This document shows, one piece after another, positions 11,301-51,846 of a DNA stretch of 64,000 bases; the first letter of the stretch is position 1, and every line of letters begins with the position of its first letter. The notes under the pieces are model-generated. The model was not told where the DNA came from. It searched no databases and saw only the letters and a program-made list of their open reading frames with translations. A program made the translations under genes and the position numbers. Source of the stretch: a bacterium (lineage in GTDB: Bacteria; Babelota; Babeliae; Babelales; UBA12409); NCBI GenBank assembly GCA_021823685.1, contig JAKANL010000001.1:38831-102830 (forward strand). Reading direction: 5' to 3'.

Positions 11301-11809
11301 AATCGTTGTTTGCCAAAAACATTCATAAACCATCGGATGCGTTCTTCGGCTTGTTCGCGTTGATTACTCAAAACAAGTGACGGGATGTGCCCGCCTAGGC
11401 ACGCCGTTGAAGCGATGAGTCCCTCGTTGTATCTTTCGAGGGCGGCATAATCGATGCGTGGCTTAAAATAGAAGCCGTCTTTGAAAGAAAAAGAGATGAG
11501 TTTGCATAAATTTTTGTACCCGATTTCATTTTGTACGAGCAGGAGAATGTGATAATACTTGTCCTCGGCATTTTTGATCGCTACGTCTTGCGTCATGTAG
11601 GCTTCCATGCCCAGAATGGGCTTGATGCCATTTTTTTTGCATAGCTCAAAAAACTTAACGGCACCAAAAATATTGCCATGATCGGTGAGCGCCACCGAGC
11701 TCATGCCGCATTCTTTTGTGCGTTCAACGAGCTGCTCGAGGCGTGTTGCGCCGTCCAGAAGCGAGTATTCAGAATGTACGTGTAAATGGGTAAAATGTTG
11801 ATCAGCCAT
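8372..11809 (-). CDS. dnaE: DNA polymerase III alpha subunit
   Basis: 1145 aa. PHP domain HLHVHSEYSLLDG, palm GRGSAAGSLVAWAMEITNLDP, and FAGYGFNKSHSAAYA, collinear with DnaE. Confidence 0.95.
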   Translation of the reverse strand: MADQHFTHLHVHSEYSLLDGATRLEQLVERTKECGMSSVALTDHGNIFGAVKFFELCKKNGIKPILGMEAYMTQDVAIKNAEDKYYHILLLVQNEIGYKNLCKLISFSFKDGFYFKPRIDYAALERYNEGLIASTACLGGHIPSLVLSNQREQAEERIRWFMNVFGKQRFFLEVQPEDQPEQTVVNNFMYEMGPKYGLDIIATTDAHYPTYDYREAHEVMLCIQTHHKITDKDRMTFGSCKPWLRSMPEMLEVFKGHEETLWNTQKIVDQCSFNFQTGKLIFPLYEVPQEHTQESYFSHLCHQGFQALIDARRIPSEHLALYQSRLEEEIELITKMGFVGYFLIVSDFIRWARRNNVPVGPGRGSAAGSLVAWAMEITNLDPLKYNLLFERFLNPERISMPDIDIDFCIEGRDKVIAYVRDKYGHDNVCNIITFGTMAAKGVLKDVARALGLPFDDANAITNLVPDQLKVSLEEALKQEPRLEALKKSNPKVAQLFDLAFRLEGITRHASKHAAGIVICPQPVDDLLPVYVPAKSNELVTQYAMTELEHLGFLKIDFLGLKNLTLIDRVVKLIQKKRDILIDIEDIALNDAATFLLICQGKTSGVFQLESDGLKDVLRRLQPDKFEDIIAVNALYRPGPLGSGMVDDYIERRHGRQQIVYVFPELETILKETYGVIVYQEQVMKIASAIGGYSLGEADILRRAMGKKKAEVMAQQREIFLTRAKERGFDAKKAGELFDLMAYFAGYGFNKSHSAAYAKIAYQTAYLKANFTSEFMACLISLEVSDPEKMSFYLEEAKTLGIGILPPDINRSEIVFSVENSAILFGLQGIKNVGQTALENIMAERVKKPFADLLNFCARVDLRTVNKRVIENLVYAGALDGLLGNRAQKIAELETILEHALEHKKSCATGQMGLFGGTKKMNDPQLFAFQPLADWPIQEKLSHEKEVIGFYLSAHPLDSYRDSMGRLDSTPIIQARSANKAQGEKEIFVTCCGFLKSHRIMFTKKGDRMAFAQIEDLSGTADIVIFPKLFATIEQWLESYHVFVVKGTLDTSTDQCRIKANMFTPIEILFQDTLKAHRLVIQLPANPSTEILADLKKQLKRGDTQLALQYQENDKTLQLKTRATVTIDPTLIALLEKMNCTVQITL

Positions 11810-21253: not shown

Positions 21254-23824
21254 ATGGAAACAAAGCACCGCGGTGCTATTTGCGTCTTCGGGGCGCGGGA
21301 GCACAACCTAAAAAATATCTCAGTCGAGATTCCAAAAGAATCTTTGACGATTATTACTGGCCCATCTGGATCGGGCAAAAGTACCTTGGCGCTCGATATT
21401 TTATACGCCGAAGGCAAACGTCGTTATATTGAATCGCTTTCTTCGTACGCGCGTCAATTTTTAGGGGCAGCGGGCAAGCCAGACGTTGATCGTATTGTTG
21501 GGCTGTGCCCATCGATTGCCATTGAACAAAAAACGGTGAGTATGAATCCCCGTTCTACGGTTGGTACTATCACTGAAATTTATGATTATCTACGCGTGCT
21601 TTTCGCACGCCTTGGCAAACCGCATTGTCCGCAGTGCGGGAAACGCATCAGCCAGGAGTCACCTGAAAACATTAGGCACCTACTCTATAACCAATTTTTA
21701 GATCAATACGTAACGATTGCCGCTCCGCTTGCGCACGAGCGTAAAGGCGAATTTTCCAATGTGCTTGCGCAGCTTTTTGCTCAGGGGTATTTTCGTTTTC
21801 GCATTGATGGCCAACAACATCGTTTCCAATCGCCTGATGAACTTAAGGCGCTCAATCTTAAGAAAACATTTAAACACACCGTTGATGTGCTTATTGACCA
21901 CGTCCAGGTAACCGGAGAGGAAAAGCAGCGTGTTGAAGAGGGTATTGAAAAAGCGTTTGCGTTGGGTTCCGGCAGTGCCAAAATTATTGTTGGTAGTACC
22001 GAATTTGTTTATTCATCACAGCGTATGTGTATTGATTGTACGTTATCGTTTCCTGAGTTAGAGCCGCGTTTGTTTTCGTTTAATTCTCCGATTGGCGCCT
22101 GCACAACCTGCCATGGTATCGGACAAATTCATAATTGGCCATGGCAAGAAAATGATCCTAATGCCTGGAAGGCTGAGTACCCAGAATTTTTCGGCACATA
22201 TGCCACTATTTTTACCTGTGCAGCGTGTAACGGTAAACGATTAAATCCACATGCGTTGGCGGTTACTATTGGCGATTGTTCGATCGATGATCTAGCACAA
22301 ATGCCCATCAAGCGTTTATTACCGTGGTTTAAGGCGTTAACGTTGCCTGAACATGAAGAACAAATTGCGCGCACACTTCTTAAAGAAATAGTAAATCGGT
22401 TAACATTTTTAGATGACGTTGGGCTTGCGTATTTAACGCTGGGGCGCGGATCGAGAACGCTTTCTGGCGGTGAAGGCCAACGTATTCGTCTGGCTACACA
22501 AATAGGTTCGGCTTTATCTGGCGTGCTCTATATTTTGGATGAACCAAGTATTGGCTTGCACCAACGCGATAACGATCGATTGATTACTACATTGCGCTCG
22601 CTGCGCGATCAGGGCAATACCGTGCTGGTGGTTGAACATGATATTGATACTATTAAGGCGGCTGACCATGTGATTGATATGGGGCCTGCTGCCGGCGTTC
22701 ATGGCGGGCAGGTGTGTGCCTTTGGTGCACCGCATGAACTTGCCAATAATGAACAGTCCCTTACTGGGGCATATCTAGCTGGCCGGCGCGCAATAGCAAT
22801 TCCTGATATGCGGCGATCGCCGCGTTCATGGTTGACGCTGCGTGGTGCACGAGCCAATAATTTATGCATCGATGAGCTCAAGGTACCGCTCGGCGTTCTT
22901 TGTGGGGTATCCGGGGTTTCTGGATCGGGCAAAAGTAGTTTGGTTATGGAAGAATTGGTTCCGGCCGTGCATCGGGCGCTCACCCGTCCGGGAAAAATGG
23001 GTGAACATATTTCCATGCCCGAAGGAAGTATTGAAGGGTGTGAGGCGTTATTAAATTGCGTGGTGGTAGACCAATCTCCCATCGGCCGCACGCCACGATC
23101 AAATCCTGCCACGTATTTGGGTATTTTTGATGATATACGCGACCTTTTCGCTGGATTGCCCGAAAGTAAAGCGCGTGGATACGGGCCGGGGCGGTTTAGT
23201 TTTAACGTGGCCGATGGCCGCTGTTTTGAATGCCAGGGCGATGGCGAAATTACGGTAAGCATGCACTTTTTGCCCGATATCACCGTTGCGTGCAAATCAT
23301 GCAAAGGGCGGCGTTATAATGCCCAGACCCTGGAAATCACCTACAAAGGCAAAAATATTTATGACGTTTTATCCATGACGGCCAGTCAGGCGCGGGCATT
23401 TTTTGGTGCGCATACGCCGCTGCTAAAGCGATTACAGCTTTTGTGTGAAGTTGGCTTGGATTATGTTGCGCTGGGGCAGCCGGCAACGACATTGTCGGGC
23501 GGCGAGGCGCAGCGAGTTAAATTGGTCAAGGAGCTGGCCAAACGTGGTTCGCGAACATTATATATTTTAGACGAGCCGACAACGGGGCTACATAATAGTG
23601 ATATTGAAAAATTGCTTGCCGTTCTTAATCGTTTAATTGATAAGGGAAATTCGGTTATTACGATTGAGCATAATCTAGATTTTTTGAAAACCGTTGATTA
23701 TTTGATCGATCTGGGGCCAGAAGGCGGCGACGAGGGTGGGCGTGTGGTTGCCATCGGAACACCACATCAAATTGCCAAAGAGAAAAAAGGCCATACGAGC
23801 CGCTATCTTGCGCATTATTTTTAG
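21254..23824 (+). CDS. uvrA: excinuclease ABC subunit A (short form)
   Basis: Two ABC modules (GPSGSGKST / LSGGEGQR; GVSGSGKSS / LSGGEAQR) and zinc modules (CPQC, CIDC, CTTC, CAAC, CFEC..CKSC). At 856 aa it is about 85 aa shorter than typical UvrA. Confidence 0.9.
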   Translation: METKHRGAICVFGAREHNLKNISVEIPKESLTIITGPSGSGKSTLALDILYAEGKRRYIESLSSYARQFLGAAGKPDVDRIVGLCPSIAIEQKTVSMNPRSTVGTITEIYDYLRVLFARLGKPHCPQCGKRISQESPENIRHLLYNQFLDQYVTIAAPLAHERKGEFSNVLAQLFAQGYFRFRIDGQQHRFQSPDELKALNLKKTFKHTVDVLIDHVQVTGEEKQRVEEGIEKAFALGSGSAKIIVGSTEFVYSSQRMCIDCTLSFPELEPRLFSFNSPIGACTTCHGIGQIHNWPWQENDPNAWKAEYPEFFGTYATIFTCAACNGKRLNPHALAVTIGDCSIDDLAQMPIKRLLPWFKALTLPEHEEQIARTLLKEIVNRLTFLDDVGLAYLTLGRGSRTLSGGEGQRIRLATQIGSALSGVLYILDEPSIGLHQRDNDRLITTLRSLRDQGNTVLVVEHDIDTIKAADHVIDMGPAAGVHGGQVCAFGAPHELANNEQSLTGAYLAGRRAIAIPDMRRSPRSWLTLRGARANNLCIDELKVPLGVLCGVSGVSGSGKSSLVMEELVPAVHRALTRPGKMGEHISMPEGSIEGCEALLNCVVVDQSPIGRTPRSNPATYLGIFDDIRDLFAGLPESKARGYGPGRFSFNVADGRCFECQGDGEITVSMHFLPDITVACKSCKGRRYNAQTLEITYKGKNIYDVLSMTASQARAFFGAHTPLLKRLQLLCEVGLDYVALGQPATTLSGGEAQRVKLVKELAKRGSRTLYILDEPTTGLHNSDIEKLLAVLNRLIDKGNSVITIEHNLDFLKTVDYLIDLGPEGGDEGGRVVAIGTPHQIAKEKKGHTSRYLAHYF

Positions 23825-30073: not shown

Positions 30074-32671
30074 ATGCCAATGTCAGATGCCATTACGCAA
30101 TCTGTTCAACCGTCTACAGTTTCGGGTCGCGTTACGCCCTTGATGGAACAATATTTTGCCATTAAAAGTGCCTATCGGCAGGCGCTTGTTTTTTTTCAGG
30201 TCGGTGATTTTTACGAATTATTTTTCGACGACGCCAAAAAAGCTTCAGCTGTGTTGGGCATTGCGCTGACCAAACGCGGTACGCACAATGGCGATCCGGT
30301 GCCGCTGTGCGGCGTTCCTATCCACGTTTTGGAGCACCATTTAACGAAATTAGTAAAAGCCGGCTTTCACGTCGCTATTTGCGACCAACTTGACCAAGCC
30401 CGCCCAGGCATAGTGGTTAGACGTGGCGTAACGCGCGTATTAACGCCAGGGACGCTGACGGATAGTAAATTATTAGACGCAAAACGAGCTTCGTATTTAT
30501 GTGCGCTTTTAATTGATGGGCACGTGATTGCGCTCGTTTTTGCAGAACTTTTAACCGGACAGCTCATGGCAACGCTCCTGAAAGCCGACGACATGCGTGG
30601 TCTGGAAACGCAATTGCAGCGCTTTATGCCCGATGAAATAGTCGTTGGCGGTGCGGCGCGTGCTGGTTGGCAGAAACGTTTGCAGCAGATGGGCTTTGCT
30701 GTTAGTGAACCGGTGAGCGTATCAGATGGTGGCGGGGGTGCATGGGCTGCAGCGGTGTGCGCCAATCAATCGGCTATTCTTGAACGCAGTGCCGCGCTTA
30801 AATTCGCGCTTGAAGAATTGTATGCGTACCTGAAAAAGAATCAAGAAGCCGCGCTGGGGCAATTCAAAACGATTCAATGCTATCGCAACGAAGATTATAT
30901 GGTGCTCGATGCCGCAACGCAGCGTAACTTGGAACTGGTTTCCAATGCGCATGATGGCGGTATTTTGCATACGCTCTGTTGGGTGCTTGATCATGCCGTG
31001 ACCCCGATGGGATCGCGTACCATAAAAAAATGGTTAAACAGTCCGTTCATTAATCAAGCACAGATCAATCATCGGCTTGATGCTGTTGCAGCGCTCGTGC
31101 GTGATATTGCAACTACTCAGCAACTCGTTGAACGGCTTGCCGGTGTGGGCGATATTGAGCGTGTTGTTGGGCGCATAGCGCTTGAGCGAACGCAGGTATA
31201 TGACTATGTCCATTTGACGGCCGCCTTGAAAGTTTTACCCGCTATCCGTTCGCTGGTCCGAGCGTTGCCACAAAGTACCTTGCTCGAACGTATTGGCGCT
31301 GCATTGGGCGATTTTTCTTCGCTGCATGCGTTGCTTCATGCCGCTATCAACGACGATTCAGCCCATGATTGGCTGATCAAGCCCGGATTTGATGCGCAGC
31401 TTGATCAATTGCGTGAAACGTTGAGCCATGAGCATGAAAAATTGATGGCATTAGAACGCGCCGAGCAAGAAAAAACAGGAATAACATCGCTCAAAGTGCG
31501 CTACAACCAGGTGCATGGGTATTATATAGAGGTTACCAAGCCCAATGTGCATCTGGTGCCCGATTATTACCGCAGGCATCAAACATTAGTCAATGCTGAA
31601 CGATTTACGACGCCGGATTTAGAAAATCTTGAGCATCAGCTGGTAAAAGCTCGAACGCAGTTGAATTACCTTGAACAAGAAGTATATAACCGGGTTAAGG
31701 GTGAAGTTTTTACCGCGCTTTCTGGCCTGCGCCAGACGGCCTACGCCTTGGCGCATATTGATGCGTTAGTCGGCTTTGCCTTAACGGCCTATGATCAGGG
31801 TTACTGCCGGCCAACCATTGAGCCGGAGGGTGATATTGTTATTGTCGGGGGCAAGCATCCGGTCGTGGGAAGTCTGTTGGGGGTTAATTTTATTGCAAAC
31901 GATACGGCACTGACCCAAGCTGAGCGGCTATGGCTCGTGACTGGCCCGAATATGGGCGGCAAATCAACGTATTTGCGTCAAGTCGCGCTTATATGCGTTA
32001 TGGCTCAGTGTGGCTCATTTGTTCCCGCCACATCGGCCCAATTGCCTATTTTAGATCGCGTGTTTACTCGTGTTGGTGCTGGCGATCATTTGGCCGAGGG
32101 GAAAAGTACGTTTTTGGTTGAAATGGAAGAAACGGCGACTATTTGCCGGCAAGCAACAGCCAAAAGTTTAGTGATTTTAGATGAGGTTGGTCGCGGAACG
32201 AGCACGTACGATGGTCTGGCGATTGCCCAGGCCGTCGTTGAATATTTGCACCAGGTTGTTAAAGCACGCTGTTTGTTTGCAACGCATTATCATGAGCTAA
32301 CGCACCTGCCTGGCGTTATGCCCGGGATTGCCAATTACCACGTGGCCAGCCGTCAGGGAGCCAATGGGATCATCTTTTTACACAAAATGGTCTCCGGGGC
32401 AGCGACGGGGAGCTTTGGCCTCGAGGTGGCTCAATTAGCGCAGCTGCCGGCGACTCTGGTTGCCCGTGCACGCCATATTTTGCGCGAATTAAATGCTGGG
32501 CAACATCGAGCACACTGCGGTGAGCCCGAAGACCCAGAAATGGGTGCGGCTGGGCCGGCTGCTGACTGGCTTAGTGATGAAATCAAGCTGCTGGATATCG
32601 ATAATCTCACGCCACGTCAGGCGCATGAACTGCTTGGCCGGTTCAAAGATCGCCTCAAAAACGTGCCCTGA
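30074..32671 (+). CDS. mutS: DNA mismatch repair protein MutS
   Basis: TPLMEQYFAIKSAY...GDFYELFFDDA mismatch-binding domain, Walker A GPNMGGKSTYLRQ, and DEVGRGTSTYDG. 865 aa. Confidence 0.95.
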   Translation: MPMSDAITQSVQPSTVSGRVTPLMEQYFAIKSAYRQALVFFQVGDFYELFFDDAKKASAVLGIALTKRGTHNGDPVPLCGVPIHVLEHHLTKLVKAGFHVAICDQLDQARPGIVVRRGVTRVLTPGTLTDSKLLDAKRASYLCALLIDGHVIALVFAELLTGQLMATLLKADDMRGLETQLQRFMPDEIVVGGAARAGWQKRLQQMGFAVSEPVSVSDGGGGAWAAAVCANQSAILERSAALKFALEELYAYLKKNQEAALGQFKTIQCYRNEDYMVLDAATQRNLELVSNAHDGGILHTLCWVLDHAVTPMGSRTIKKWLNSPFINQAQINHRLDAVAALVRDIATTQQLVERLAGVGDIERVVGRIALERTQVYDYVHLTAALKVLPAIRSLVRALPQSTLLERIGAALGDFSSLHALLHAAINDDSAHDWLIKPGFDAQLDQLRETLSHEHEKLMALERAEQEKTGITSLKVRYNQVHGYYIEVTKPNVHLVPDYYRRHQTLVNAERFTTPDLENLEHQLVKARTQLNYLEQEVYNRVKGEVFTALSGLRQTAYALAHIDALVGFALTAYDQGYCRPTIEPEGDIVIVGGKHPVVGSLLGVNFIANDTALTQAERLWLVTGPNMGGKSTYLRQVALICVMAQCGSFVPATSAQLPILDRVFTRVGAGDHLAEGKSTFLVEMEETATICRQATAKSLVILDEVGRGTSTYDGLAIAQAVVEYLHQVVKARCLFATHYHELTHLPGVMPGIANYHVASRQGANGIIFLHKMVSGAATGSFGLEVAQLAQLPATLVARARHILRELNAGQHRAHCGEPEDPEMGAAGPAADWLSDEIKLLDIDNLTPRQAHELLGRFKDRLKNVP

Positions 32672-39663: not shown

Positions 39664-39706
39664 AACCAATCCCCCATGTATAGAAAGGTAATTGGGGTTT
39701 AAAAAG

Positions 39707-40681
39707 ATGAAAGGCGTGGTCGTGAGAGTTTGGTGTTGTCTTTTTGTGTTTTTAGCCACAGGTGTTATGCATTGTGCCAGGGCTGGAAAGATGCATAGAA
39801 ATTCATTTATAACATCTGATTCACTTGTTTTTTGTACAGCGGCTGATTCACGATATTATGGTCCGCTGCTTTGTTTAATTGGATCGATACATCGATTGCA
39901 TTATGACGATTTGGGTGAAGTTTCGGTGTATAATTTGGGGCTTTCAAAAGAAGAGGTTTCAACATTAAAAAAAATAAAAAAGGTACAGGTCTATGAAATT
40001 GAGCGCGTACATCCCGATTTGTTAAGGAGCTTTTATTCCGGACGGTCTAAGCATGTTATAGGGTGGTTTGCCTGGAAGCCTGTGGTTATCAAGCAAGAGC
40101 TAGAACGATATCCATATTTTTTGTATGTGGATGCAGGAACCCTCATTCTAAATTCAGTAAAAAATCTGTTCGGTTATATTAAGGAGAAGGGCTCTTTTTT
40201 TATTGATACCGATGTAACTTTTGATGCATTTACCACCAAGCCGGTAAAACAATTTTTTGGTTTGAGTGATAATTGGTTGCAAACGCATCGTATGATACTT
40301 GCAGGGTTTCAGGGAATTTCTAGAGAGTTGGCCGATCAATATGTTATTCCTATGTATCACATGGCGAGAGATCATTTCGATTTATTTATTGATGATGGTA
40401 GTGCTGGTAGCGGCTTGGGATGGGGGAGACATGATTTGGTTTTATTTAGTTATTTTGTTAACACACTAAATTATAAAATATATCAAGGAAAACAGGCAGA
40501 TCTCGGAAAATATGGAATAATTTCTTTCAACAAAGGTGTTCCAACATTGGTTGAGGCTGCTCCGGGTTCATCATCTTACCCTCAATGTACGATTTATAAT
40601 TCTCGATGCAATGTGTGGTCAACCTTTAAAAAATATATAAGATATGGTGCGGCTGATCAAAGCGCAATTACTGTTATCTGA
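39707..40681 (+). CDS. putative GT-A-like glycosyltransferase (DUF1647-like), paralog of 42455..43645
   Basis: Anchor VVVRVWCCLFVFLATGV. Shared blocks are AADSRYYGPLL..SI, VSVYNLGLS, WFAWKPVVIKQEL..YPYFLYVDAG and LAGFQGIS. The family assignment comes from memory of the WKP and DAG/S blocks only. Confidence 0.45.
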   Translation: MKGVVVRVWCCLFVFLATGVMHCARAGKMHRNSFITSDSLVFCTAADSRYYGPLLCLIGSIHRLHYDDLGEVSVYNLGLSKEEVSTLKKIKKVQVYEIERVHPDLLRSFYSGRSKHVIGWFAWKPVVIKQELERYPYFLYVDAGTLILNSVKNLFGYIKEKGSFFIDTDVTFDAFTTKPVKQFFGLSDNWLQTHRMILAGFQGISRELADQYVIPMYHMARDHFDLFIDDGSAGSGLGWGRHDLVLFSYFVNTLNYKIYQGKQADLGKYGIISFNKGVPTLVEAAPGSSSYPQCTIYNSRCNVWSTFKKYIRYGAADQSAITVI

Positions 40682-42454: not shown

Positions 42455-43645
42455 TTATTTAAAACTTCGTTTTGTTGCACGTATCTGTGGATGGATTTTT
42501 GATTGCCCGTGGCTTCGGCCAGCAGCCCTGTTTTTTATTTGGGCAAAGTGGGCGGTTTTTTTCACGCGGAGCTTCTTTATGACTTGTGCAACAGGCGAAT
42601 TTTTTGGTTCAGGTTTTGCTGGCGTTGTAACCGGTTCTTTTTTCTTTTGCACAGTTTTTCCGCTTGTTTTGTCTTGCTCGTCCGGGGTGCCTTTTTTGTC
42701 GTCTTTTTCTTCAATGGTTGTTTTTTCTGGCTGTGGGGGTGGTGGCGTCGGTATAAAGCCGTGGGTTGCTAGTTCTTTTTTCGCTATTTCGCATAGTGTT
42801 GCAAGATCTTTTTTGCCGTGTGTGCGTTTGGTGAGCCAGGTGAAGTAGTGGACTGAGTGTACTTTGAATCCAAGTTTTCTGACCAGGATGCTGAAGAGCG
42901 GTTGGTCGTTACGGCTGTAGTCAAATCCGCCCGGGCAGCCCGGATCACTTTGGAAATATTCTATATTTTTTGCCAGCTGGTAGATCGGTAGTACATACGA
43001 TTTATAAATGTGGCCACTTACTCCTTGATAGCCGGCCGATATGCCCGTTTCTTGCCCGTATTTTTCAAATTCATCTTTGAAGAGCTCCATAATTTTGGGC
43101 GGTGACATGATCATTATCGGGTGGCTTTCAGAACAGGCGGCGAAAAAGTAGCCGTCGCGCTCAATGCAGGCAAACGGGTAGCTGAGCGGCGCTTGTAACT
43201 CGAGTCCGGCGTCGATATACATACAATAGGGGTATTTATCGAGCGCCATTTTGAGCGCAACCGGTTTCCAACTGTAGTAGCCGCGCGCCGTTCGGCCATT
43301 TTGGCGGACGGGAAATGGCGTGAGCATAGAGGGGTTTACTTGCTCAAGGGTATCGACGTGAACATTGGGGAGCGTTGTGATTTCCGTTCGCTGTTCCGGC
43401 GTAAGCCCGAGGTCATAAACGGTGATTTCCCACGGCGTGTTAGCATGGTGTTTATAAATCGAATTAATCATGACAAGCAGGCAAGGATAAAACTCACTGT
43501 CTGCTGACGTGGCAAAATAGAGTTTTTCAAATGTTGCTTGCGTATTGATTATCCATAGCATGATTACGACATAGATGAGGCGGTGCCGCATAGGCGTGGA
43601 AACTTTCTTGGCGTGCATATTTTTACTCCACATGGGCTTCATCAC
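42455..43645 (-). CDS. putative GT-A-like glycosyltransferase (DUF1647-like) with Lys/Pro-rich basic tail
   Basis: Paralog of 39707..40681 (SADSEFYPCLL..SI, ITVYDLGLT, YYSWKPVALKMAL..YPYCMYIDAG, SAGYQGVS). Anchor is LIYVVIMLWII. The C-terminal roughly 110 aa is K/P/T-rich. Confidence 0.45.
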   Translation of the reverse strand: MMKPMWSKNMHAKKVSTPMRHRLIYVVIMLWIINTQATFEKLYFATSADSEFYPCLLVMINSIYKHHANTPWEITVYDLGLTPEQRTEITTLPNVHVDTLEQVNPSMLTPFPVRQNGRTARGYYSWKPVALKMALDKYPYCMYIDAGLELQAPLSYPFACIERDGYFFAACSESHPIMIMSPPKIMELFKDEFEKYGQETGISAGYQGVSGHIYKSYVLPIYQLAKNIEYFQSDPGCPGGFDYSRNDQPLFSILVRKLGFKVHSVHYFTWLTKRTHGKKDLATLCEIAKKELATHGFIPTPPPPQPEKTTIEEKDDKKGTPDEQDKTSGKTVQKKKEPVTTPAKPEPKNSPVAQVIKKLRVKKTAHFAQIKNRAAGRSHGQSKIHPQIRATKRSFK

Positions 43646-43751
43646 CTGTTGTGCCTAGTATAGGCAGATATTGCGGCATTCGTGAATTTTTTTGTTTTGG
43701 ATTAAAAAGGAGCTTCTATTGTGACTTTTTAACTAAAATGGCAGCTCACAA

Positions 43752-43788
43752 AGTAATCTACCACCGACAGGGTCGGTGGCAGATTACT
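43752..43788 (-). terminator. long hairpin after the 43804..44130 gene
   Basis: 17-bp inverted repeat AGTAATCTACCACCGAC / GTCGGTGGCAGATTACT (1 mismatch) with a 3-nt loop, 16 nt past the stop. The T run is weak. Confidence 0.45.
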
Positions 43789-43803
43789 TGATACTTAACT
43801 GGA

Positions 43804-44130
43804 TTAGTTGACGGTCATTCGCCAAAAGTGCGGACGTTCGCCATTAGGTGATTCGAAGCATACACCCTCGGTTTTCCCTTTTTCGAGAGCAGTTACATTT
43901 TGACCATCTACCGTTAGCGTGTTGTTGCGTGTTGCATATAAGACATCTTCGCCTGGAACACGACAGTGGCTAATTTTTGCCGACAACGACGCCAATGAGC
44001 AGGTGCTTCCCTTGTTCATTTTGAATTGGTAATATTGCCCGTCCTCAAAAGGCGTATTCTCGCTGCAAAATGGTACCGCATTTACCGCCGCGAAACTTCC
44101 GGCAAGTAAAACTAACACGAGCTTCTTCAT
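43804..44130 (-). CDS. small secreted Cys-containing protein (paralog A)
   Basis: AAGGAGGAATC-ATG. Signal peptide MKKLVLVLLAGSFAAVNA. Four Cys positions are conserved with 44962..45369, and both share YQFKM and the C-terminal W-RMTV(N/S). Confidence 0.75.
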   Translation of the reverse strand: MKKLVLVLLAGSFAAVNAVPFCSENTPFEDGQYYQFKMNKGSTCSLASLSAKISHCRVPGEDVLYATRNNTLTVDGQNVTALEKGKTEGVCFESPNGERPHFWRMTVN

Positions 44131-44175
44131 GATTCCTCCTTTTATTTGAGAAGAAGTTAAACTGTTAATTTACAG

Positions 44176-44206
44176 TTTATACTACTACTACTACTACTAC
44201 TTGCAA
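44176..44206 (-). promoter_or_regulatory. sigma70-like promoter whose spacer is a (GTA)7 triplet repeat
   Basis: Minus strand reads TTGCAA (44206..44201), a 19-nt spacer made of GTA repeats, and TATAAA (44181..44176), about 45 nt upstream of ATG 44130. Confidence 0.45.
44180..44200. repeat. (TAC)7 microsatellite
   Basis: Seven perfect TAC units read directly in the sequence. Confidence 0.95.
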
Positions 44207-44230
44207 GGGTTTAGGTAAAATATTTTTGCG

Positions 44231-44458
44231 TTAGCGTAAAAAGCAGCAGCTGATGAAGAAAATGGCGGTGAGGACAGCGGCGATGTAATTGAAGTAACCA
44301 CTGAGTATCTGTTGGAAGTTCTGGCCGTAGCGGCGGGCAAGCAGTGCTATACCAAAAAAGCGGATTGAGCGGCCCATAAGTAGGCAGATATTGCGGCATT
44401 GAAATTTTTTGATGATGCGGCCGAGAGGGGCCATACATTGATCAGTTGATGTGGCCAT
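44231..44458 (-). pseudogene. chimeric 3' fragment of a DedA/YqaA-family gene
   Basis: Residues MGRSIRFFGIALLARRYGQNFQQILSGYFNYIAAVLTAIFFISCCFLR align with the C-terminus of 45720..46289. Homology stops near 44379, where a 20-nt copy of 43661..43680 begins. Confidence 0.7.
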
Positions 44459-44487
44459 TAGAAAATTTCGAATGGCTTTCGGGAAAT

Positions 44488-44802
44488 TTATTCTTTTTCG
44501 GTTCCTGAAGTTTTCATGCCAACGAGTTCGATGCGCCCTGGTTTGAGCGAAATAAGATACACGTTGAGTGAATCGGCATTTTCATCGGCGGGGCCGATCA
44601 TGGTGACCGATGCGTTGGGGGAGATTTTGATCTCTTCTCCATGATTAATTACTTTGCTAAAGGTATGGTTAATGCCGTCTTTCCAGGATGACCACTCGAT
44701 ATGTATTGGTAGTTCTGTTTTATTACTAATTATGGTAGCAAAAATAGACGGGGAGCTACCAAGCGTTATCAGTGCGGTGAGTGTTAATAAGAGTTTTTTC
44801 AT
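44488..44802 (-). CDS. small secreted protein
   Basis: Signal peptide MKKLLLTLTALITLGSSPSIFA, 104 aa. It shows no similarity to paralogs A or B. Confidence 0.6.
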   Translation of the reverse strand: MKKLLLTLTALITLGSSPSIFATIISNKTELPIHIEWSSWKDGINHTFSKVINHGEEIKISPNASVTMIGPADENADSLNVYLISLKPGRIELVGMKTSGTEKE

Positions 44803-44910
44803 ACGATTTCCTTTGGTTTTAAACTCTCATGAAGTCTAAGTTACGGCCGTTGCACATTTCAATGGTTTTACGTAAGTCATGGTAGCCGACGATAAATGGG
44901 GTGAGGGCGC

Positions 44911-44940
44911 AAAAAAGGGGCGAAAACAGTCGCCCCTTTT
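44911..44940 (-). terminator. rho-independent terminator after 44962..45369
   Basis: AAAGGGGCG / CGCCCCTTT stem with an 8-nt loop and a T run on the minus strand (A6 at 44911..44916). Confidence 0.7.
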
Positions 44941-44961
44941 TCTTTTTGATCCTTAAATGAA

Positions 44962-45369
44962 TTAGGAAACTGTCATTCTCCAGACAAATTGTTGGGGTCG
45001 ACAGCGGTCCGTTTGTTTATCGAAACATACGCCCACGGTTGTTCCTTTCGATCTAGCTGTTACGTTCTCATTAACACCCGCTTGGATTATTTTATTCTCT
45101 GTACTATACCGCGAGAAACCAGTTTGGACTAGACAGCGCTCAATTTTGTCAGACAGCGCCCCCAATGAACACTCTTGTCCCTCCTTCATTTTGAACTGGT
45201 AGATGGTTTCGTAACCGGGGCCGCTATTATCTTCGTAAGGTGTGTTTTTCTCGCAGTTTTTTATTAGTAGCGCACGTACCGCCGCGGAACTTCCGTCAGG
45301 CTTTGGTACTACTACCGCATTTACCGCCGCGAAACTTCCGGCAAGTAAAACTAACAAGACCTTCTTCAT
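44962..45369 (-). CDS. small secreted Cys-containing protein (paralog B)
   Basis: Same RBS and signal peptide (MKKVLLVLLAGSFAAVNA) as paralog A. It has an internal duplication of the signal-peptide-coding segment (GSFAAVNA / GSSAAVRA) and ends WRMTVS. Confidence 0.75.
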   Translation of the reverse strand: MKKVLLVLLAGSFAAVNAVVVPKPDGSSAAVRALLIKNCEKNTPYEDNSGPGYETIYQFKMKEGQECSLGALSDKIERCLVQTGFSRYSTENKIIQAGVNENVTARSKGTTVGVCFDKQTDRCRPQQFVWRMTVS

Positions 45370-45412
45370 GATTCCTCCTTTTATTTTAGAAGAAGTTAAA
45401 CTATCAATTTAA

Positions 45413-45442
45413 AGTATACGCTACTACTACTACTACTTGCAA
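45413..45442 (-). promoter_or_regulatory. sigma70-like promoter whose spacer contains (GTA)5
   Basis: Minus strand reads TTGCAA (45442..45437), an 18-nt spacer (GTA x5 + GCG), and TATACT (45418..45413), about 45 nt upstream of ATG 45369. Confidence 0.45.
45422..45436. repeat. (TAC)5 microsatellite
   Basis: Five perfect TAC units at the position equivalent to the (TAC)7 tract of the paralogous locus. Confidence 0.95.
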
Positions 45443-45497
45443 GGGTTTGTGTAAACATTTTTGTGTTAGTGGAGAAGATAGCAGCTGGTGATGAAAG

Positions 45498-45680
45498 GTC
45501 CCTTGGCCCTAACCGGGCGGGTGGAAAGAGCCTGCCGCCTGGCTCTTTCCAATCTCGGCGCCAAAGGAGGGCCTTTGGAAACCCTGCGCCTGCATGGCAC
45601 CCTCTCGCCTGCGAGTTCAAGATGAATGTTTAAACGAGCGGCTGCGGAGTGCAACAACAGGCGCGAATGCCTGGTTTTTT
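45498..45680. other. GC-rich structured insert (candidate ncRNA or repeat element)
   Basis: About 180 nt, visibly more GC-rich than its flanks. Perfect hairpins are GGAAAGAGCC(8 nt)GGCTCTTTCC at 45523..45550 and CCAAAGG-AGGG-CCTTTGG at 45561..45578. It ends in CAGGC-GCGAAT-GCCTG + GT6 on the + strand. Confidence 0.4.
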
Positions 45681-45719
45681 AGAAACTATCAAGATTAGGG
45701 CTGTAAAAGCGTGTGTTTT

Positions 45720-46289
45720 TTAGTGCAGGATATAGCAACTGGCGATGAAAATCGCGGTGAGGGCGGCGGCGATGTAGTTAAAATACCCGCGCAGGAGCTG
45801 TTGGACCTGAGCGCCAAAGCGGTTGGCAAAAAGCGCTATGCCAAAAAAACGAATCGAGCGGCCCATAATTGCGCTCAGAACAAAGGGAAGAAATGCGATG
45901 TGGCAGAACCCCGCGCTTAGGGTGAGTAATTTGTAAGGGAACGGGGTTAAACTTGCGATAAAGATTGCGCAGCCGCCGTGTTCTTGATATAAGCACATGA
46001 GCCGACTGAGTGTGCCATGAGGTGAAAGATGGTTGATAAACGATGTGCCGATATAACAAAGGAGTAGTGAACCGAGCCAATAGGCCAAAATACCGCCCAG
46101 CACTGAAGCGATTGTGGCGCCAAGGGCATAGCGGAGCGATTTTTTTGGTTGTTCCAGACAAAAAATGGTGAGAAGCGTACCTGCCGGCATAAAAATAACG
46201 GCCTCAACGAAAACGGCGACCAAAAAGAGCGGGAACGCCCACCGGTGATTGGTGTGTCCAGTTAACGCTCGATACATGCGCTGCATCAT
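45720..46289 (-). CDS. DedA/YqaA-family membrane protein
   Basis: 189 aa with 4-5 hydrophobic helices. The layout FPLFLVAVFVEAVIFMPAG...GRSIRFFGIALF is typical of the small YqaA/DedA family. Confidence 0.65.
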   Translation of the reverse strand: MMQRMYRALTGHTNHRWAFPLFLVAVFVEAVIFMPAGTLLTIFCLEQPKKSLRYALGATIASVLGGILAYWLGSLLLCYIGTSFINHLSPHGTLSRLMCLYQEHGGCAIFIASLTPFPYKLLTLSAGFCHIAFLPFVLSAIMGRSIRFFGIALFANRFGAQVQQLLRGYFNYIAAALTAIFIASCYILH

Positions 46290-46309
46290 AAAACCTCCAT
46301 GCCAGATTG

Positions 46310-47614
46310 TTATATTACTGCTGCGTTTTTGATTATTTCTTCGATGCGCTCGAGCGCAACGCGTTCTTGCTGCATACTATCGCGGTAACGCACGGTTACC
46401 GTATTGCTTGCCTGGCTTTCAAAATCATAGGTAAAGCAGAACGGCGTGCCAATTTCATCTTGGCGGCGATAGCGCTTGCCAATCGAGCCGGTCTGATCAA
46501 ATTGTACCGCATAACCCTTTTTCTTGAGTTCAAAATAGAGCTTGAGCATGGGCTTAGATAATTGCTTGCTCAGTGGTAAAAGTGCGGCGGTTACGGGCGC
46601 AATGGCTGGATGTAATTTTAAAACTACGCGCACATCGTCATCAACTTTTTCTTCGTTGTAGGCGTCGCACAAAAGCGCGAGCATGAGACGATCGCTACCC
46701 ACCGAACATTCAACGACATGCGGGGTATAGGATATCTGCGTTTCCTCGTCGAAAACCTTTAAATCTTTTTTAGATTGCGTTGCATGCTGCGTTAAATCAA
46801 AGTCACCGCGGTTGGCGATGCCTTCAAGCTCCTTCCAGCCAAACGGGAACTGGTATTCAACGTCCGTGCAGCCCTTGGAATAGTGCGCCAATTCTGTTTT
46901 TTCATGCGCGCGGAAGCGGATATTGACCATATTAAAGCCGAGCGCCTTGTAAAATGCTTGGCGTTGATCGAGCCAGTATTGAAACGCATCGCAGGCTTCT
47001 TCTGGCTTGCAGAGCCACTCCATCTCCATTTGCTCAAATTCGCGCGTTCTGAACAAAAATTGTTTTGGCGTAATTTCGTTACGAAATGCTTTGCCAACTT
47101 GTGCGATACCAAAAGGGATTTTAACGCGATTGGATGACATAACGTTTTTTACGTTAATAAAAATCGATTGTGCGGTTTCTGGTCGTAAATACGCTATGGA
47201 TGACTCATCGCTGACGGCGCCAACCTGTGTTTTGAACATGAGGTTAAATTCGCGGGGGGCCGTCCACTCTTTTTTGCCGCACGAAGGGCACGGTTCATCT
47301 AAACTTAATTCGTCGGCTCGATAACGCTTTTTACAGTTCATGCAATCGACCATCGGATCGTGGAAATTATCGATATGCCCTGACGCTTTCCAGACGGCTG
47401 GACCACCGAGAATTGACCCCTCAAAAAAGACGACGTCTCGTTCGGTTGCATTAAGGCTCTTTTTCCAAAAATTTCTGATATTGGTTTTCATGAGGCTTCC
47501 CAGTGGCCCAAAATCATAGACGCCATTGAGGCCGCCATAGATTTCCGACGATGGGTATACAAAACCGCAACGTTTGCACAGTGCGCTTATTTTTTCCAGG
47601 GTAACCACGGGCAT
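46310..47614 (-). CDS. glyQS: glycine--tRNA ligase (dimeric class II type)
   Basis: N-terminus ...CKRCGFVYPSSEIYGGLNGVYDFGPLGSLMK, class II motifs FRNEITP and SVGSDRLMLAL, and an anticodon-binding C-terminus. Confidence 0.92.
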   Translation of the reverse strand: MPVVTLEKISALCKRCGFVYPSSEIYGGLNGVYDFGPLGSLMKTNIRNFWKKSLNATERDVVFFEGSILGGPAVWKASGHIDNFHDPMVDCMNCKKRYRADELSLDEPCPSCGKKEWTAPREFNLMFKTQVGAVSDESSIAYLRPETAQSIFINVKNVMSSNRVKIPFGIAQVGKAFRNEITPKQFLFRTREFEQMEMEWLCKPEEACDAFQYWLDQRQAFYKALGFNMVNIRFRAHEKTELAHYSKGCTDVEYQFPFGWKELEGIANRGDFDLTQHATQSKKDLKVFDEETQISYTPHVVECSVGSDRLMLALLCDAYNEEKVDDDVRVVLKLHPAIAPVTAALLPLSKQLSKPMLKLYFELKKKGYAVQFDQTGSIGKRYRRQDEIGTPFCFTYDFESQASNTVTVRYRDSMQQERVALERIEEIIKNAAVI

Positions 47615-50257: not shown

Positions 50258-50600
50258 CTACCGCCTTCCGCTCACCCTGAGTTTATCGAAGGGTGCGCTT
50301 GGCGACGGCGGGAGTTTATCTGTCTTCGCCTACGCAGGTATGTCATTGGTGTTGAACTAGGCTACGAACGGCCGCGGCCCATCTGAGCCGGTCGAAGGGC
50401 GTTTCCCATTCTTTCCACACCAGTCAAACACGACATTCTTCGACAAGCTCCCAGCCTTCGCGTGAAGCTTCGGCGGGCAGGCAGAATGAGCGGGGTGTGG
50501 TGGCTTAGAATGAGCCGGTGCGGCTCGGCATGAGCCCGGGGGATTTTCTTTACTTTCGCGAACCGCCACGCGTACGCTGGGGGCAGAAATTGAAAGGATT
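50258..50600. repeat. GC-rich modular intergenic repeat cluster (copy c)
   Basis: Modules are CTGAGTTTATCGAAGGG and CTGAGCCGGTCGAAGGG, CGCCTACGCAGGTATGTC (50327..50344), CATTCTTCGACAAGCTCCCAGCC (50434..50456) and three subrepeats AGAATGAGC(C)GG about 23 nt apart. The track ORFs here are translation artefacts. Confidence 0.75.
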
Positions 50601-50604
50601 GGGT

Positions 50605-51846
50605 ATGCGTACAAAAATTTTAATCGTTCTTGCGTTGGGCATTGCCATAAATACACAGGCCAACGATATCGAAACAAATAAGGCGCTGGCTGATCATATT
50701 AAAAGTGGTTCGCTTACACTGGCGTGGCTTGATAAACAGCAATTTACTCATGATCAACTTAACACACCCATTGAACGTGGGCTTACACCGCTTGGATTGG
50801 CCATTGAGCAAGATATGCCGCAAGCAATTGATTATTTAATAGCCGCGGGCGCCAATGTGCATACGATGACCAATGGGTTAACCCCGCTTGAATTTGCCGC
50901 GCACCGTTCGTATGTTTTACTTATGCAGCAGCTCATGATTGCCGGTGCGCAACTGACGGTTCCGCTGTGTCGCCGTGCTCCCGAGCTGTATCCGGTTTTT
51001 TACTATTTATTACGCATTTTTAAACCAATTAAATTTGGCAATCAGTACGATGGTGACAATTGTTTCGGGTTGACCCGTGCGCGTGTTGATGAATGTTTGG
51101 ATAATATGCTCTTGCATGTTATTGACGATCGCGAGTTGGTCCAGTTGCTTGAGATGGGCGCACATGTTGAGTTTCGCGATGAACTGGGCAAAACCGCGCT
51201 TGATTATGCCGTTGAAAATTGTCATTGGAAAATTGCAGCAATTTTGCTAGGGCATGGATCTCCGGAAGCGCGCAATTATGCACTGTCTGGCGCTTGTAAG
51301 GAGCTTGGACAGGCGACGACGCTTGAACGAACGTTTGCCTGTGCGAATACCGCTCAGTTATTGCGTCAGCGGGTACCTGTTGATAGTGTTTATCGCGAAT
51401 TGTTAGTGCATATACAACATAAAACGCTGACGCCGGAATTTTTGGGTACATATTTTGTTGGGCTTAATCGGCTGAATATTAACCGTACCTATTCGTCACA
51501 TGGCGGGGCGGACGCGCTCTTTTTTGCCGTGCAAGCCGGCGACTATGACACGATCTTGTGGCTTTTGGTATATGGTGCTCGTCCGCATCTTAAGGCGCTT
51601 GCATGGGCGCTTGAACATAGCCCAAAGCGCATTGTTCGACTGCTCGTATCGCGCGGTGCACGATTGTTCCGCATCAAAGATTTCCTTACGCGTGTTATCA
51701 TGCACAATCCGGACGCGTGTGAGATTGTTGCATGGTTAGCGCCGTTGGTTGGTCGGCAACAACGCAACCAGGCATTACGATTAGCCAAACAGCGCGGGTG
51801 TTTGGAAATGGTCGAAGCGCTTGAAAATGCGGGTGCACACGCATAA
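50605..51846 (+). CDS. secreted ankyrin-repeat protein
   Basis: GAAAGGA RBS then ATG 50605. Signal peptide MRTKILIVLALGIAINTQA. ANK units include GLTPLGLAIEQDMPQAIDYLIAAGANV, GLTPLEFAAHRSY..LMIAGAQL and GKTALDYAVENCHWKIAAILLGHG. Confidence 0.85.
   Translation: MRTKILIVLALGIAINTQANDIETNKALADHIKSGSLTLAWLDKQQFTHDQLNTPIERGLTPLGLAIEQDMPQAIDYLIAAGANVHTMTNGLTPLEFAAHRSYVLLMQQLMIAGAQLTVPLCRRAPELYPVFYYLLRIFKPIKFGNQYDGDNCFGLTRARVDECLDNMLLHVIDDRELVQLLEMGAHVEFRDELGKTALDYAVENCHWKIAAILLGHGSPEARNYALSGACKELGQATTLERTFACANTAQLLRQRVPVDSVYRELLVHIQHKTLTPEFLGTYFVGLNRLNINRTYSSHGGADALFFAVQAGDYDTILWLLVYGARPHLKALAWALEHSPKRIVRLLVSRGARLFRIKDFLTRVIMHNPDACEIVAWLAPLVGRQQRNQALRLAKQRGCLEMVEALENAGAHA

Follow-up and report, generated by a model that had tools for sequence, protein, structure and literature searches.

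Could a short trinucleotide repeat that forms the spacer of a promoter serve a bacterium as a genetic switch? The question is raised by two paralogous genes for small, predicted secreted proteins, here called A and B, which lie close together in a stretch of 64 kb (the window; all coordinates are positions in it) whose host is identified by its sequence as a bacterium of the Dependentiae (candidate division TM6, Babeliales-like). Upstream of each gene, a GTA repeat is placed between a -35-like and a -10-like hexamer, and the original prediction was that gain and loss of repeat units would switch the two genes by phase variation. This interpretation is partly supported; it is plausible and concerns a predicted promoter. 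The claim that the GTA tract is the spacer of a sigma-70-type promoter cassette, acting as a mutational tuning or contingency switch for secreted proteins, is given here about as much credence as doubt. Direct observations are the cassette layout, its occurrence in three organisms, the whole-unit polymorphism in two of them and the preference of the phylum for spacers of 16-18 nt.

The predicted promoter cassettes of the two paralogues

Both loci are read on the minus strand and share the layout that had been described for them, which can be read directly in the sequence: TTGCAA, a GTA repeat, a -10-like hexamer, a ribosome-binding site (RBS) and the ATG. At locus B, the -35-like hexamer TTGCAA (45437..45442) is followed by a spacer of 18 nt (45419..45436), made up of (GTA)5 (45436-45422) and GCG (45421-45419), and by the -10-like hexamer TATACT (45413..45418). 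The reading of this locus as TTGCAA-(GTA)5GCG-TATACT is confirmed by the sequence and by a consensus promoter scan, which lists TTGCAA-18-TATACT with 9/12 matches. A leader of 43 nt lies between TATACT and the ATG at 45369, with the RBS AAGGAGG at 45374-45380.

At locus A, TTGCAA (44201..44206) is followed by a (GTA)7 tract of 21 nt (44180..44200), and the same RBS, AAGGAGG (44135-44141), precedes an ATG at 44130. Three -10-like hexamers are candidates at this locus, namely TAGTAT with a spacer of 16 nt (44179-44184), TATAAA with a spacer of 19 nt (44176-44181) and TAAACT with a spacer of 21 nt (44174-44179), the last being the homologue of the TATACT of B in the alignment. Hence the TTGCAA-(GTA)7 part of the earlier description stands, but its choice of TATAAA at 19 nt as the -10 hexamer does not, as TATAAA is devoid of the conserved final T; the homologous hexamer is TAAACT, and TAGTAT scores better in a rough position-weight sketch.

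Both GTA tracts are reported by Tandem Repeats Finder, and a regular-expression census of simple sequence repeats (SSRs) found them to be the sole trinucleotide SSRs of at least four units in the 64 kb. The window has two occurrences of TTGCAA(GTA)5, and 100 dinucleotide-preserving shuffles have none. At both loci, an SSR is thereby located between predicted -35 and -10 hexamers, 43-45 nt before the ATG. No support was found for the tract as coding sequence, as one frame meets TAG and no open reading frame (ORF) of substance crosses the tract.

The alignment of the two promoters shows that A equals B plus exactly 3 nt, with a GTA in A at the place of the GCG in B, and hence the paralogues differ by one unit of length and not by two. 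The seven against five units of the two copies had been taken as proof that the tract is unstable. This argument is weakened, since the aligned copies differ by a single unit and the tracts are not independent, both being derived from one duplicated unit.

Two further features of the leader region may be mentioned. In locus A, AACTGT-AAATTA-ACAGTT (44153-44179, minus strand) forms a perfect 6-bp inverted repeat that overlaps TAAACT and the likely start site; it is only partly retained in B (TACTTT-AAATTG-ATAGTT) and could be a candidate operator. Likewise, CTTCTTC in the leader could pair with GAAGAAG of codons 2-3, which would leave the RBS in the loop.

Recurrence of the cassette and whole-unit polymorphism

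A scan of JGI metagenomes with the pattern TTGCAA(GTA)5 gave 72 matches, most of which resemble eukaryote-type microsatellites. Among them were two independent bacterial loci, from organisms here called species S and species T, in which the tract (in species S, its GCG) is directly followed by TAnnCT, and this in turn by a leader of ~40 nt, an RBS and a small ORF whose predicted product begins like a signal peptide; the pattern demanded none of these features. An alignment of six sequences gives the common cassette AAAC(C/T)(C/G)-TTGCAA-(GTA)n[GCG]-TA(A/T)(A/G)CT, followed by an A-rich hexamer, with both TTGCAA (required by the scan) and TAnnCT in all aligned copies. The leader motif AGTTTAACTT is common to species T and the window, and the (GTA)nGCG form of locus B is also found in species S, with n=6. 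The cargo proteins of species S (132 amino acids) and species T (70 amino acids) are related neither to A and B nor to one another; all four cargo proteins (4/4) begin with MKK or MKR and a hydrophobic, signal-like N-terminus. The cargo is of the surface or secreted, host-interaction type, as far as predicted secretion can tell.

Species S has a GC content of 37% and carries the cassette between an EamA gene and an AdoMet-decarboxylase gene. Its sample comprises 12 contigs from JGI, ENA, NCBI and Logan. The tract is (GTA)6GCG in seven contigs and (GTA)7 in four, both giving a spacer of 21 nt, and (GTA)5 in one (L164), giving 15 nt. The flanks (45 nt upstream and ~50 nt downstream) are identical save one single-nucleotide polymorphism (SNP) in the RBS, and in an alignment of 3.4 kb without the divergent allele L162, the 6-nt deletion in the tract is one of only a few indel events. 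The cargo gene of this species (L098, 4479-4877) encodes a C-X2-C-X4-H-X4-C motif, CLRCSSPNHKWANC, which we take to have the spacing of a CCHC zinc knuckle. The cargo alleles P0004-P0008 are mosaic, with a (Q/P)QSQGG repeat block present or absent and with different C-termini, and hence the cargo of species S is hypervariable in its own right.

Species T (41% GC) carries the cassette divergently from a ParB_N-like gene, the sole named relative of which among the top matches is from Candidatus Dependentiae HGW-1. Four contigs (L177, L178, L181 and L184) have (GTA)6 with a spacer of 18 nt, and one (L180, the same contig as L095) has (GTA)7 with a spacer of 21 nt. In the 3,469 alignment columns for which two or more of eight contigs have sequence, the contigs differ only by one SNP and this 3-nt unit, and the probability that a single indel falls by chance in the 21-nt tract is ~0.6%. 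Right beyond the gene for the 70-amino-acid cargo, contig L177 (1-1993) encodes a group II intron reverse transcriptase (RVT_1 and GIIM) and a Y1 transposase fragment, so that the cassette locus of species T borders mobile elements.

Every length difference among paralogues, strains and species is a multiple of 3, the spacers being of 15, 18 or 21 nt. In both species with multi-sample data, whole-unit polymorphism is present on a near-invariant background.

Spacer geometry and predicted promoter strength

The spacing of promoter-like hexamers was surveyed in 280 non-coding upstream regions from the window and ~40 Dependentiae-like loci, by pairing TTGnnn (at least 4 of 6 matches) with TAnnnT (at least 5 of 6). 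Pairs were enriched at 16, 17 and 18 nt, with 13, 14 and 10 observed against ~3 in shuffles, which implies a canonical sigma-70 geometry in the phylum, in which a 3-nt step crosses the permitted spacings. This agrees with the original prediction that unit changes shift the spacing across 16-18 nt, as the hexamers do move and this spacing is the one enriched in Dependentiae upstream regions. A secondary bump at spacers of 21-22 nt was dismissed, since it consisted mostly of secondary hexamers beside a partner at 16-17 nt, or of noise.

The strength of the possible alleles was compared in the position-weight sketch, which is built on textbook consensus frequencies and whose values are rough and for inference only. 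For B, the maximum is predicted at its own five units (TTGCAA-18-TATACT, 12.1 bits), with 10.1 bits at n=4 (TTGCAA-15-TATACT) and 8.6 bits at n=6 (TTGCAA-16-TAGCGT). For a pure tract, the predicted values are 7.9-8.8 bits at n=5 (TTGCAA-15-TAnnCT), 9.9-10.8 bits at n=6 (TTGCAA-18-TAnnCT), 10.2 bits at n=7 (TTGCAA-16-TAGTAT) and 8.2 bits at n=8 (TTGCAA-19-TAGTAT). In the sketch, the gain or loss of one unit shifts the score by 2-4 bits, and the allele with n=7 is not cleanly OFF. Overall, a spacing of 21 nt is the most frequent. A simple model with an ON state at 16-18 nt does not predict this, unless the 21-nt alleles are in the OFF state or rely on the TAGTAT at 16 nt. The frequent 21-nt alleles, seen in A of the window, in all but one contig of species S and in a single contig of species T, could be explained by the junction hexamer TAGTAT. 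Instead of switching cleanly between ON and OFF, the system may toggle between two states or work as a rheostat.

Other promoter and operator types were compared by eye. A sigma-54 promoter was rejected for want of a GG at -24 and for its spacing, sigma-32 and ECF-type promoters because CGTA is present only in the GCG alleles, and NtcA and LexA boxes because of wrong spacing or half-sites only.

The cargo genes and their tandem duplication

Gene B (44962..45369, minus strand) encodes 135 amino acids with a signal-peptide-like N-terminus, MKKVLLVLLAGSFAAVNA, and four conserved Cys, and its paralogue, gene A (43804..44130, minus strand), encodes 108 amino acids with the same signal peptide. The two proteins are 44% identical and have the N-terminus MKK(L/V)(V/L)LVLLAGSFAAVNA in common along with the four cysteines. 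No homologues beyond each other were found in 5.8 billion proteins, no relatives in 1.84 billion cluster representatives but one weak match to a SprB-repeat protein, and no match to a Pfam family; an AlphaFold model of B from a two-sequence alignment (pLDDT 38) was unusable and gave no fold assignment. By their sequences, A and B are orphan secreted paralogues from an old tandem duplication.

The duplication has left several traces on the minus strand. The gene of a VTT/DedA-family membrane protein (45720..46289; Pfam VTT_dom) lies upstream of B, and its 3' end accompanies each duplicated promoter unit in the alignment. A remnant of 30 nt (45467-45496) is placed directly upstream of promoter B, and a pseudogene fragment of 49 codons (44234..44380), 69% identical in amino acids and 75% in nucleotides to 45734-45868, forms the start of the duplicated unit A. 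At the junction of the tandem duplication (44381..44411), the sequence that directly follows unit A on its downstream side (43661-43694) is present as a copy, with 88% identity over 34 nt in a self-blastn comparison. Between A and B, the block of 188 nt made up of promoter, 5' untranslated region (5'UTR) and signal peptide has an identity of 88%, as against 75% for the adjacent pseudogene and 44% for the mature proteins. Hence this block is either constrained or homogenised by gene conversion.

The paralogues also differ in GTA units within their coding sequence. Codons 19-21 of gene B (45307-45315, minus strand) are a (GTA)3 for Val-Val-Val that adjoins the end of the signal peptide. At this place A has only one GTA, which makes a second unit-number difference between them, in frame. 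Between the stop codon of VTT and the VTT remnant lies a GC-rich spacer of 225 nt with hairpins (45497-45719, minus strand). A weak likeness to the promoter cassette is seen in its first 40 nt (TTTACA...CTTGATAGT), and beyond the spacer the final 30 nt of VTT occur a second time. No Rfam match and no protein similarity to A or B was found for this spacer, which may have arisen as a third duplicated unit, now decayed, or by the insertion of an element.

On the 3' side of gene B, a strong terminator-like hairpin (44912..44941, minus strand; listed by the scan on the plus strand) has a 12-bp stem with A/T runs on both sides, and suggests that B is a transcription unit of its own. An Rfam search of 43000-46500 gave only a sub-threshold match, on this terminator. 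Between the two units, M104 (44488..44802, minus strand) encodes a small signal-peptide protein of 104 amino acids, unrelated to A and B by self-comparison, with a promoter-like site TTGAAA-18-TAGACT at 44833-44862. Downstream of gene A, a gene at 42455-43645 (minus strand) encodes a protein of 396 amino acids with a weak Glyco_transf_8 match and a lysine/proline-rich tail. Its promoter-like site is TTCACG-18-TATACT, and a paralogue with 32% identity lies 3 kb away on the other strand (39692-40681, plus). For the 387-amino-acid product of a downstream gene, a look-up by exact protein gave no record.

In the wider setting, the window has a GC content of 45.6%, and the GlyRS encoded at 46310-47614 (minus strand) has 74% identity with that of TM6 GW2011_GWE2_36_25; the next ~35 best GlyRS loci are mostly from TM6, Dependentiae or Babeliales, or from unclassified metagenome-assembled genomes (MAGs). 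The synteny of GlyRS and VTT is retained in ~20 Dependentiae loci, none of which has A, B, M104 or the repeat. Similarly, no trinucleotide SSR of at least five units was found in 80 other GlyRS loci (~0.9 Mb), and no further cassette, with four mismatches allowed, in the 961 kb formed by the window and these loci. The window also encodes UvrA (21254-23824), DnaE (8372-11809) and an ankyrin-repeat protein of 442 amino acids (50518-51846, plus strand). Ankyrin repeats are a eukaryote-like domain associated with intracellular symbionts.

A proposed tuning or contingency switch and its alternatives

The proposed switch would work through several steps. The hexamers would act as a promoter, and the cassette [AAACC]-TTGCAA-(GTA)5-7[GCG]-TAnnCT, with a 5'UTR of ~40 nt and an RBS, would drive small lineage-specific proteins with signal peptides. 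Slipped-strand gain or loss of whole GTA units would mutate the tract, and each unit step would shift TTGCAA by 3 nt relative to TAnnCT and to the junction hexamer TAGTAT that is made by the repeat. The unit number would then alter expression by setting the strength of the promoter, and the tract would be a heritable, reversible tuning or contingency switch whose mutability has been selected. The downstream genes, being orphan, predicted to be secreted and in species S highly polymorphic, look like typical contingency-locus cargo.

Several points weigh against such a switch. The presence of TTGCAA and at least five units in the other organisms was imposed by the search pattern. The tracts have only 5-7 units, as against the 12 at which the repeat-bearing promoters of vlhA, discussed below, are active. 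The window (30074-32671, plus strand) also carries the gene of a MutS of full length (domains I, III, IV and V), and mismatch repair is probably intact in the host. MutS-dependent repair handles loops of 1-4 nt and should repair loops of 3 nt. One length is dominant per species (21 nt in 11/12 contigs of species S, 18 nt in 4/5 of species T), which suggests either modest mutation rates or stabilising selection. As 21 nt is common, 15 nt occurs, and (GTA)7 is about as good as (GTA)6 by way of TTGCAA-16-TAGTAT, ON and OFF states are not assignable from sequence, and the effect of unit number on expression may be small. Because the tracts are short, MutS is present and one allele is dominant in each species, a slow, population-level process of moderate-rate slippage would be our guess, rather than a fast ON/OFF switch.

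The species of the window itself also speaks against the proposal. Copies of the locus recovered by exact-protein look-ups showed no tract variation, as the window, GCA_027347085.1 and ERZ27237538 all have 7 + 5 units. Hence the claims that the tract is length-unstable and that repeat number differs among related strains or MAGs hold for the homologous cassette in species T (6/7 units) and species S (21/15 nt), while in the species for which they were made the three copies compared show no difference. Over 2.8-4.4 kb, GCA_027347085.1 and ERZ27237538 match the window with 100% identity, and the three identical assemblies may represent one population, which makes this a weak negative. One contig from a different sample (L005, ERZ27237541) stops exactly after the sixth GTA of tract A, at 44183. 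This end fits a branch between six and seven units in a de Bruijn graph, which is suggestive only; low coverage also fits, because L006 breaks off in unique sequence on both sides, and so does this contig at its other end. In species S, contig L174 begins at the final G of GCG, and L175 at the A that closes the tract. All three ends, which come from three samples, may reflect haplotype branching within samples (GCG against GTA, six against seven units), though they are not interpretable without assembly graphs or reads. In GCA_027347085.1, DAIERD010000022.1 and DAIERD010000001.1 end and begin at the same base, 44918 of the window, inside the terminator hairpin after B, and this boundary looks like an assembly break or a scaffold split between the paralogues. 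A scan of genome contigs with an A+B profile gave 599 pattern matches, none of them confirmed, among GTDB representatives that do not include the species of the window. Likewise, a JGI scan with repeat-independent flanks (AACCCTTGCAA N20-50 AGTTTAACTTCTTCT) gave no matches.

The conservation of the cassette could also be explained without any switching, if the tract were a sequence-specific cis-element, either a binding array for a regulator or a spacer that a specific sigma factor or activator recognises, with a preferred length under stabilising selection and with unit changes as mere noise. This is a reasonable alternative, though on the unlikely side. As for a shared regulon signal, the cassette is kept in three organisms with unrelated cargo; there is a single dominant length within each species, the commonest length overall, 21 nt, amounts to two helical turns, the GCG interruption is common to locus B and species S, and the 8-bp palindrome CTTGCAAG is found in the window and in species T. 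However, the regulator would be a hypothetical one, and (GTA)n has no dyad symmetry, unlike the operators of MerR-type long-spacer promoters. The dominant length varies by locus (18 or 21 nt), so that no single geometry is preserved, and there are only two copies in 64 kb and none in 0.9 Mb of other loci. In the near-clonal species T, moreover, the tract change is one of two differences in 3.5 kb, which argues for raised mutability.

The tract could also be a neutral microsatellite in a duplicated intergenic segment, carried along in the tandem duplication and without regulatory function, in which case the hexamers would be there by chance or the tract would be irrelevant to them. Both tracts of the window do come from one duplication and count as one origin, the promoter-like matches in the region are not in excess (7 against 5.1 in shuffles), and the survival of an intact 15-nt stretch at 88% identity is not improbable. 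This explanation is nevertheless distinctly unlikely, as the tract, the flanking hexamers, the RBS spacing and the type of cargo recur in two organisms with unrelated surrounding genes, such repeats are otherwise absent (at least four units in the rest of the window; at least five units in ~0.9 Mb), and the block is conserved better than its flanks. Alternatively, transcription of A and B may start elsewhere, by read-through from VTT or M104 or from an upstream TTTACA or TTTACC, with the tract in the 5'UTR or irrelevant. Such hexamers do exist 7 nt upstream of TTGCAA (TTTACA in B, TTTACC in A), with a TAGTAG 17 nt downstream. But TTTACA is not conserved in species S or T, unlike TTGCAA and TAnnCT, and TAGTAG is without the critical final T of a -10 hexamer. 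In the window, A is preceded by a pseudogene fragment and B by the 225-nt spacer, and the cassette of species T lies in a divergent intergenic region and hence has no upstream gene to be read through. A start elsewhere is therefore very unlikely.

If the tuning or contingency switch is taken further, Dependentiae-like intracellular bacteria might keep by selection a portable trinucleotide-repeat cassette, in which the repeat provides both the spacer and an alternative -10 hexamer and toggles between 18 and 21 nt, to vary fast-evolving secreted effectors in protist hosts. This broader proposal is a tentative one and is more to be doubted than believed.

Comparison with known systems and significance

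Phase variation by repeats in promoter spacers is established in other bacteria. For example, porA of Neisseria meningitidis has a poly-G tract between its -35 and -10 hexamers, and hifA/hifB of Haemophilus influenzae have (TA)n in the spacer of their overlapping promoters (PMC3899988). The cassettes described here resemble them in the position of the SSR, in the change of spacing with each unit, in the surface or secreted cargo and in the difference of length between strains. Unlike them, the repeat is a trinucleotide, which moves in 3-nt steps and skips the intermediate spacings, and the tract is short (5-7 units) and gives rise at the junction to a -10-like hexamer of its own, TAGTAT. The host is not a mucosal pathogen but an uncultured member of the Dependentiae, and the switching is predicted from sequence.

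A trinucleotide repeat at the promoters of a gene family is known from vlhA (pMGA) of Mycoplasma gallisepticum, where (GAA)n lies ~40 nt upstream of the transcription start and the gene is reported to be active only at n=12, by a mechanism that is unresolved (PMC6258824). The likeness extends to paralogous exported proteins, to flanks that are conserved whatever the unit number and to unit numbers that differ among paralogues and strains. In contrast to the upstream position of the repeat in vlhA, however, the tract here is itself the spacer between -35 and -10, and instead of numerous genes there are two paralogues and, in other species, unrelated cargo. Hence the view that a trinucleotide repeat would be unusual holds for its role as the spacer itself, but not for its presence in promoters of a gene family, for which (GAA)n of vlhA is a precedent (PMC6258824). 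A search of the literature found no described case of a trinucleotide repeat that forms the promoter spacer itself.

MerR-type promoters have a spacer of 19-20 bp that is remodelled by the activator, and a dyad-symmetric operator. Several alleles of the cassette share with them an over-long spacing (21 nt). In contrast to the MerR layout, (GTA)n is a direct repeat and the spacer varies between 15, 18 and 21 nt; no MerR-family gene was found beside the cassette.

The Dependentiae (TM6) are widespread and almost entirely uncultured, and the few characterised members live inside protists. To our knowledge, nothing is known of how they regulate or vary the proteins that face their hosts. A full-text search found no paper that links Dependentiae with phase variation, the only co-mention being a review of bacterial methyltransferases. 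If the proposed switch is true, it would be the first phase-variation system in the phylum and the first with a trinucleotide repeat as the spacer, and it would extend promoter-spacer switches from mono- and dinucleotides to a trinucleotide whose sequence makes a second -10 hexamer. A repeat-in-spacer promoter that changes its unit number between natural populations would offer a concrete handle on regulation in the Dependentiae, and the cassette would flag its cargo genes as candidate host-interaction factors.

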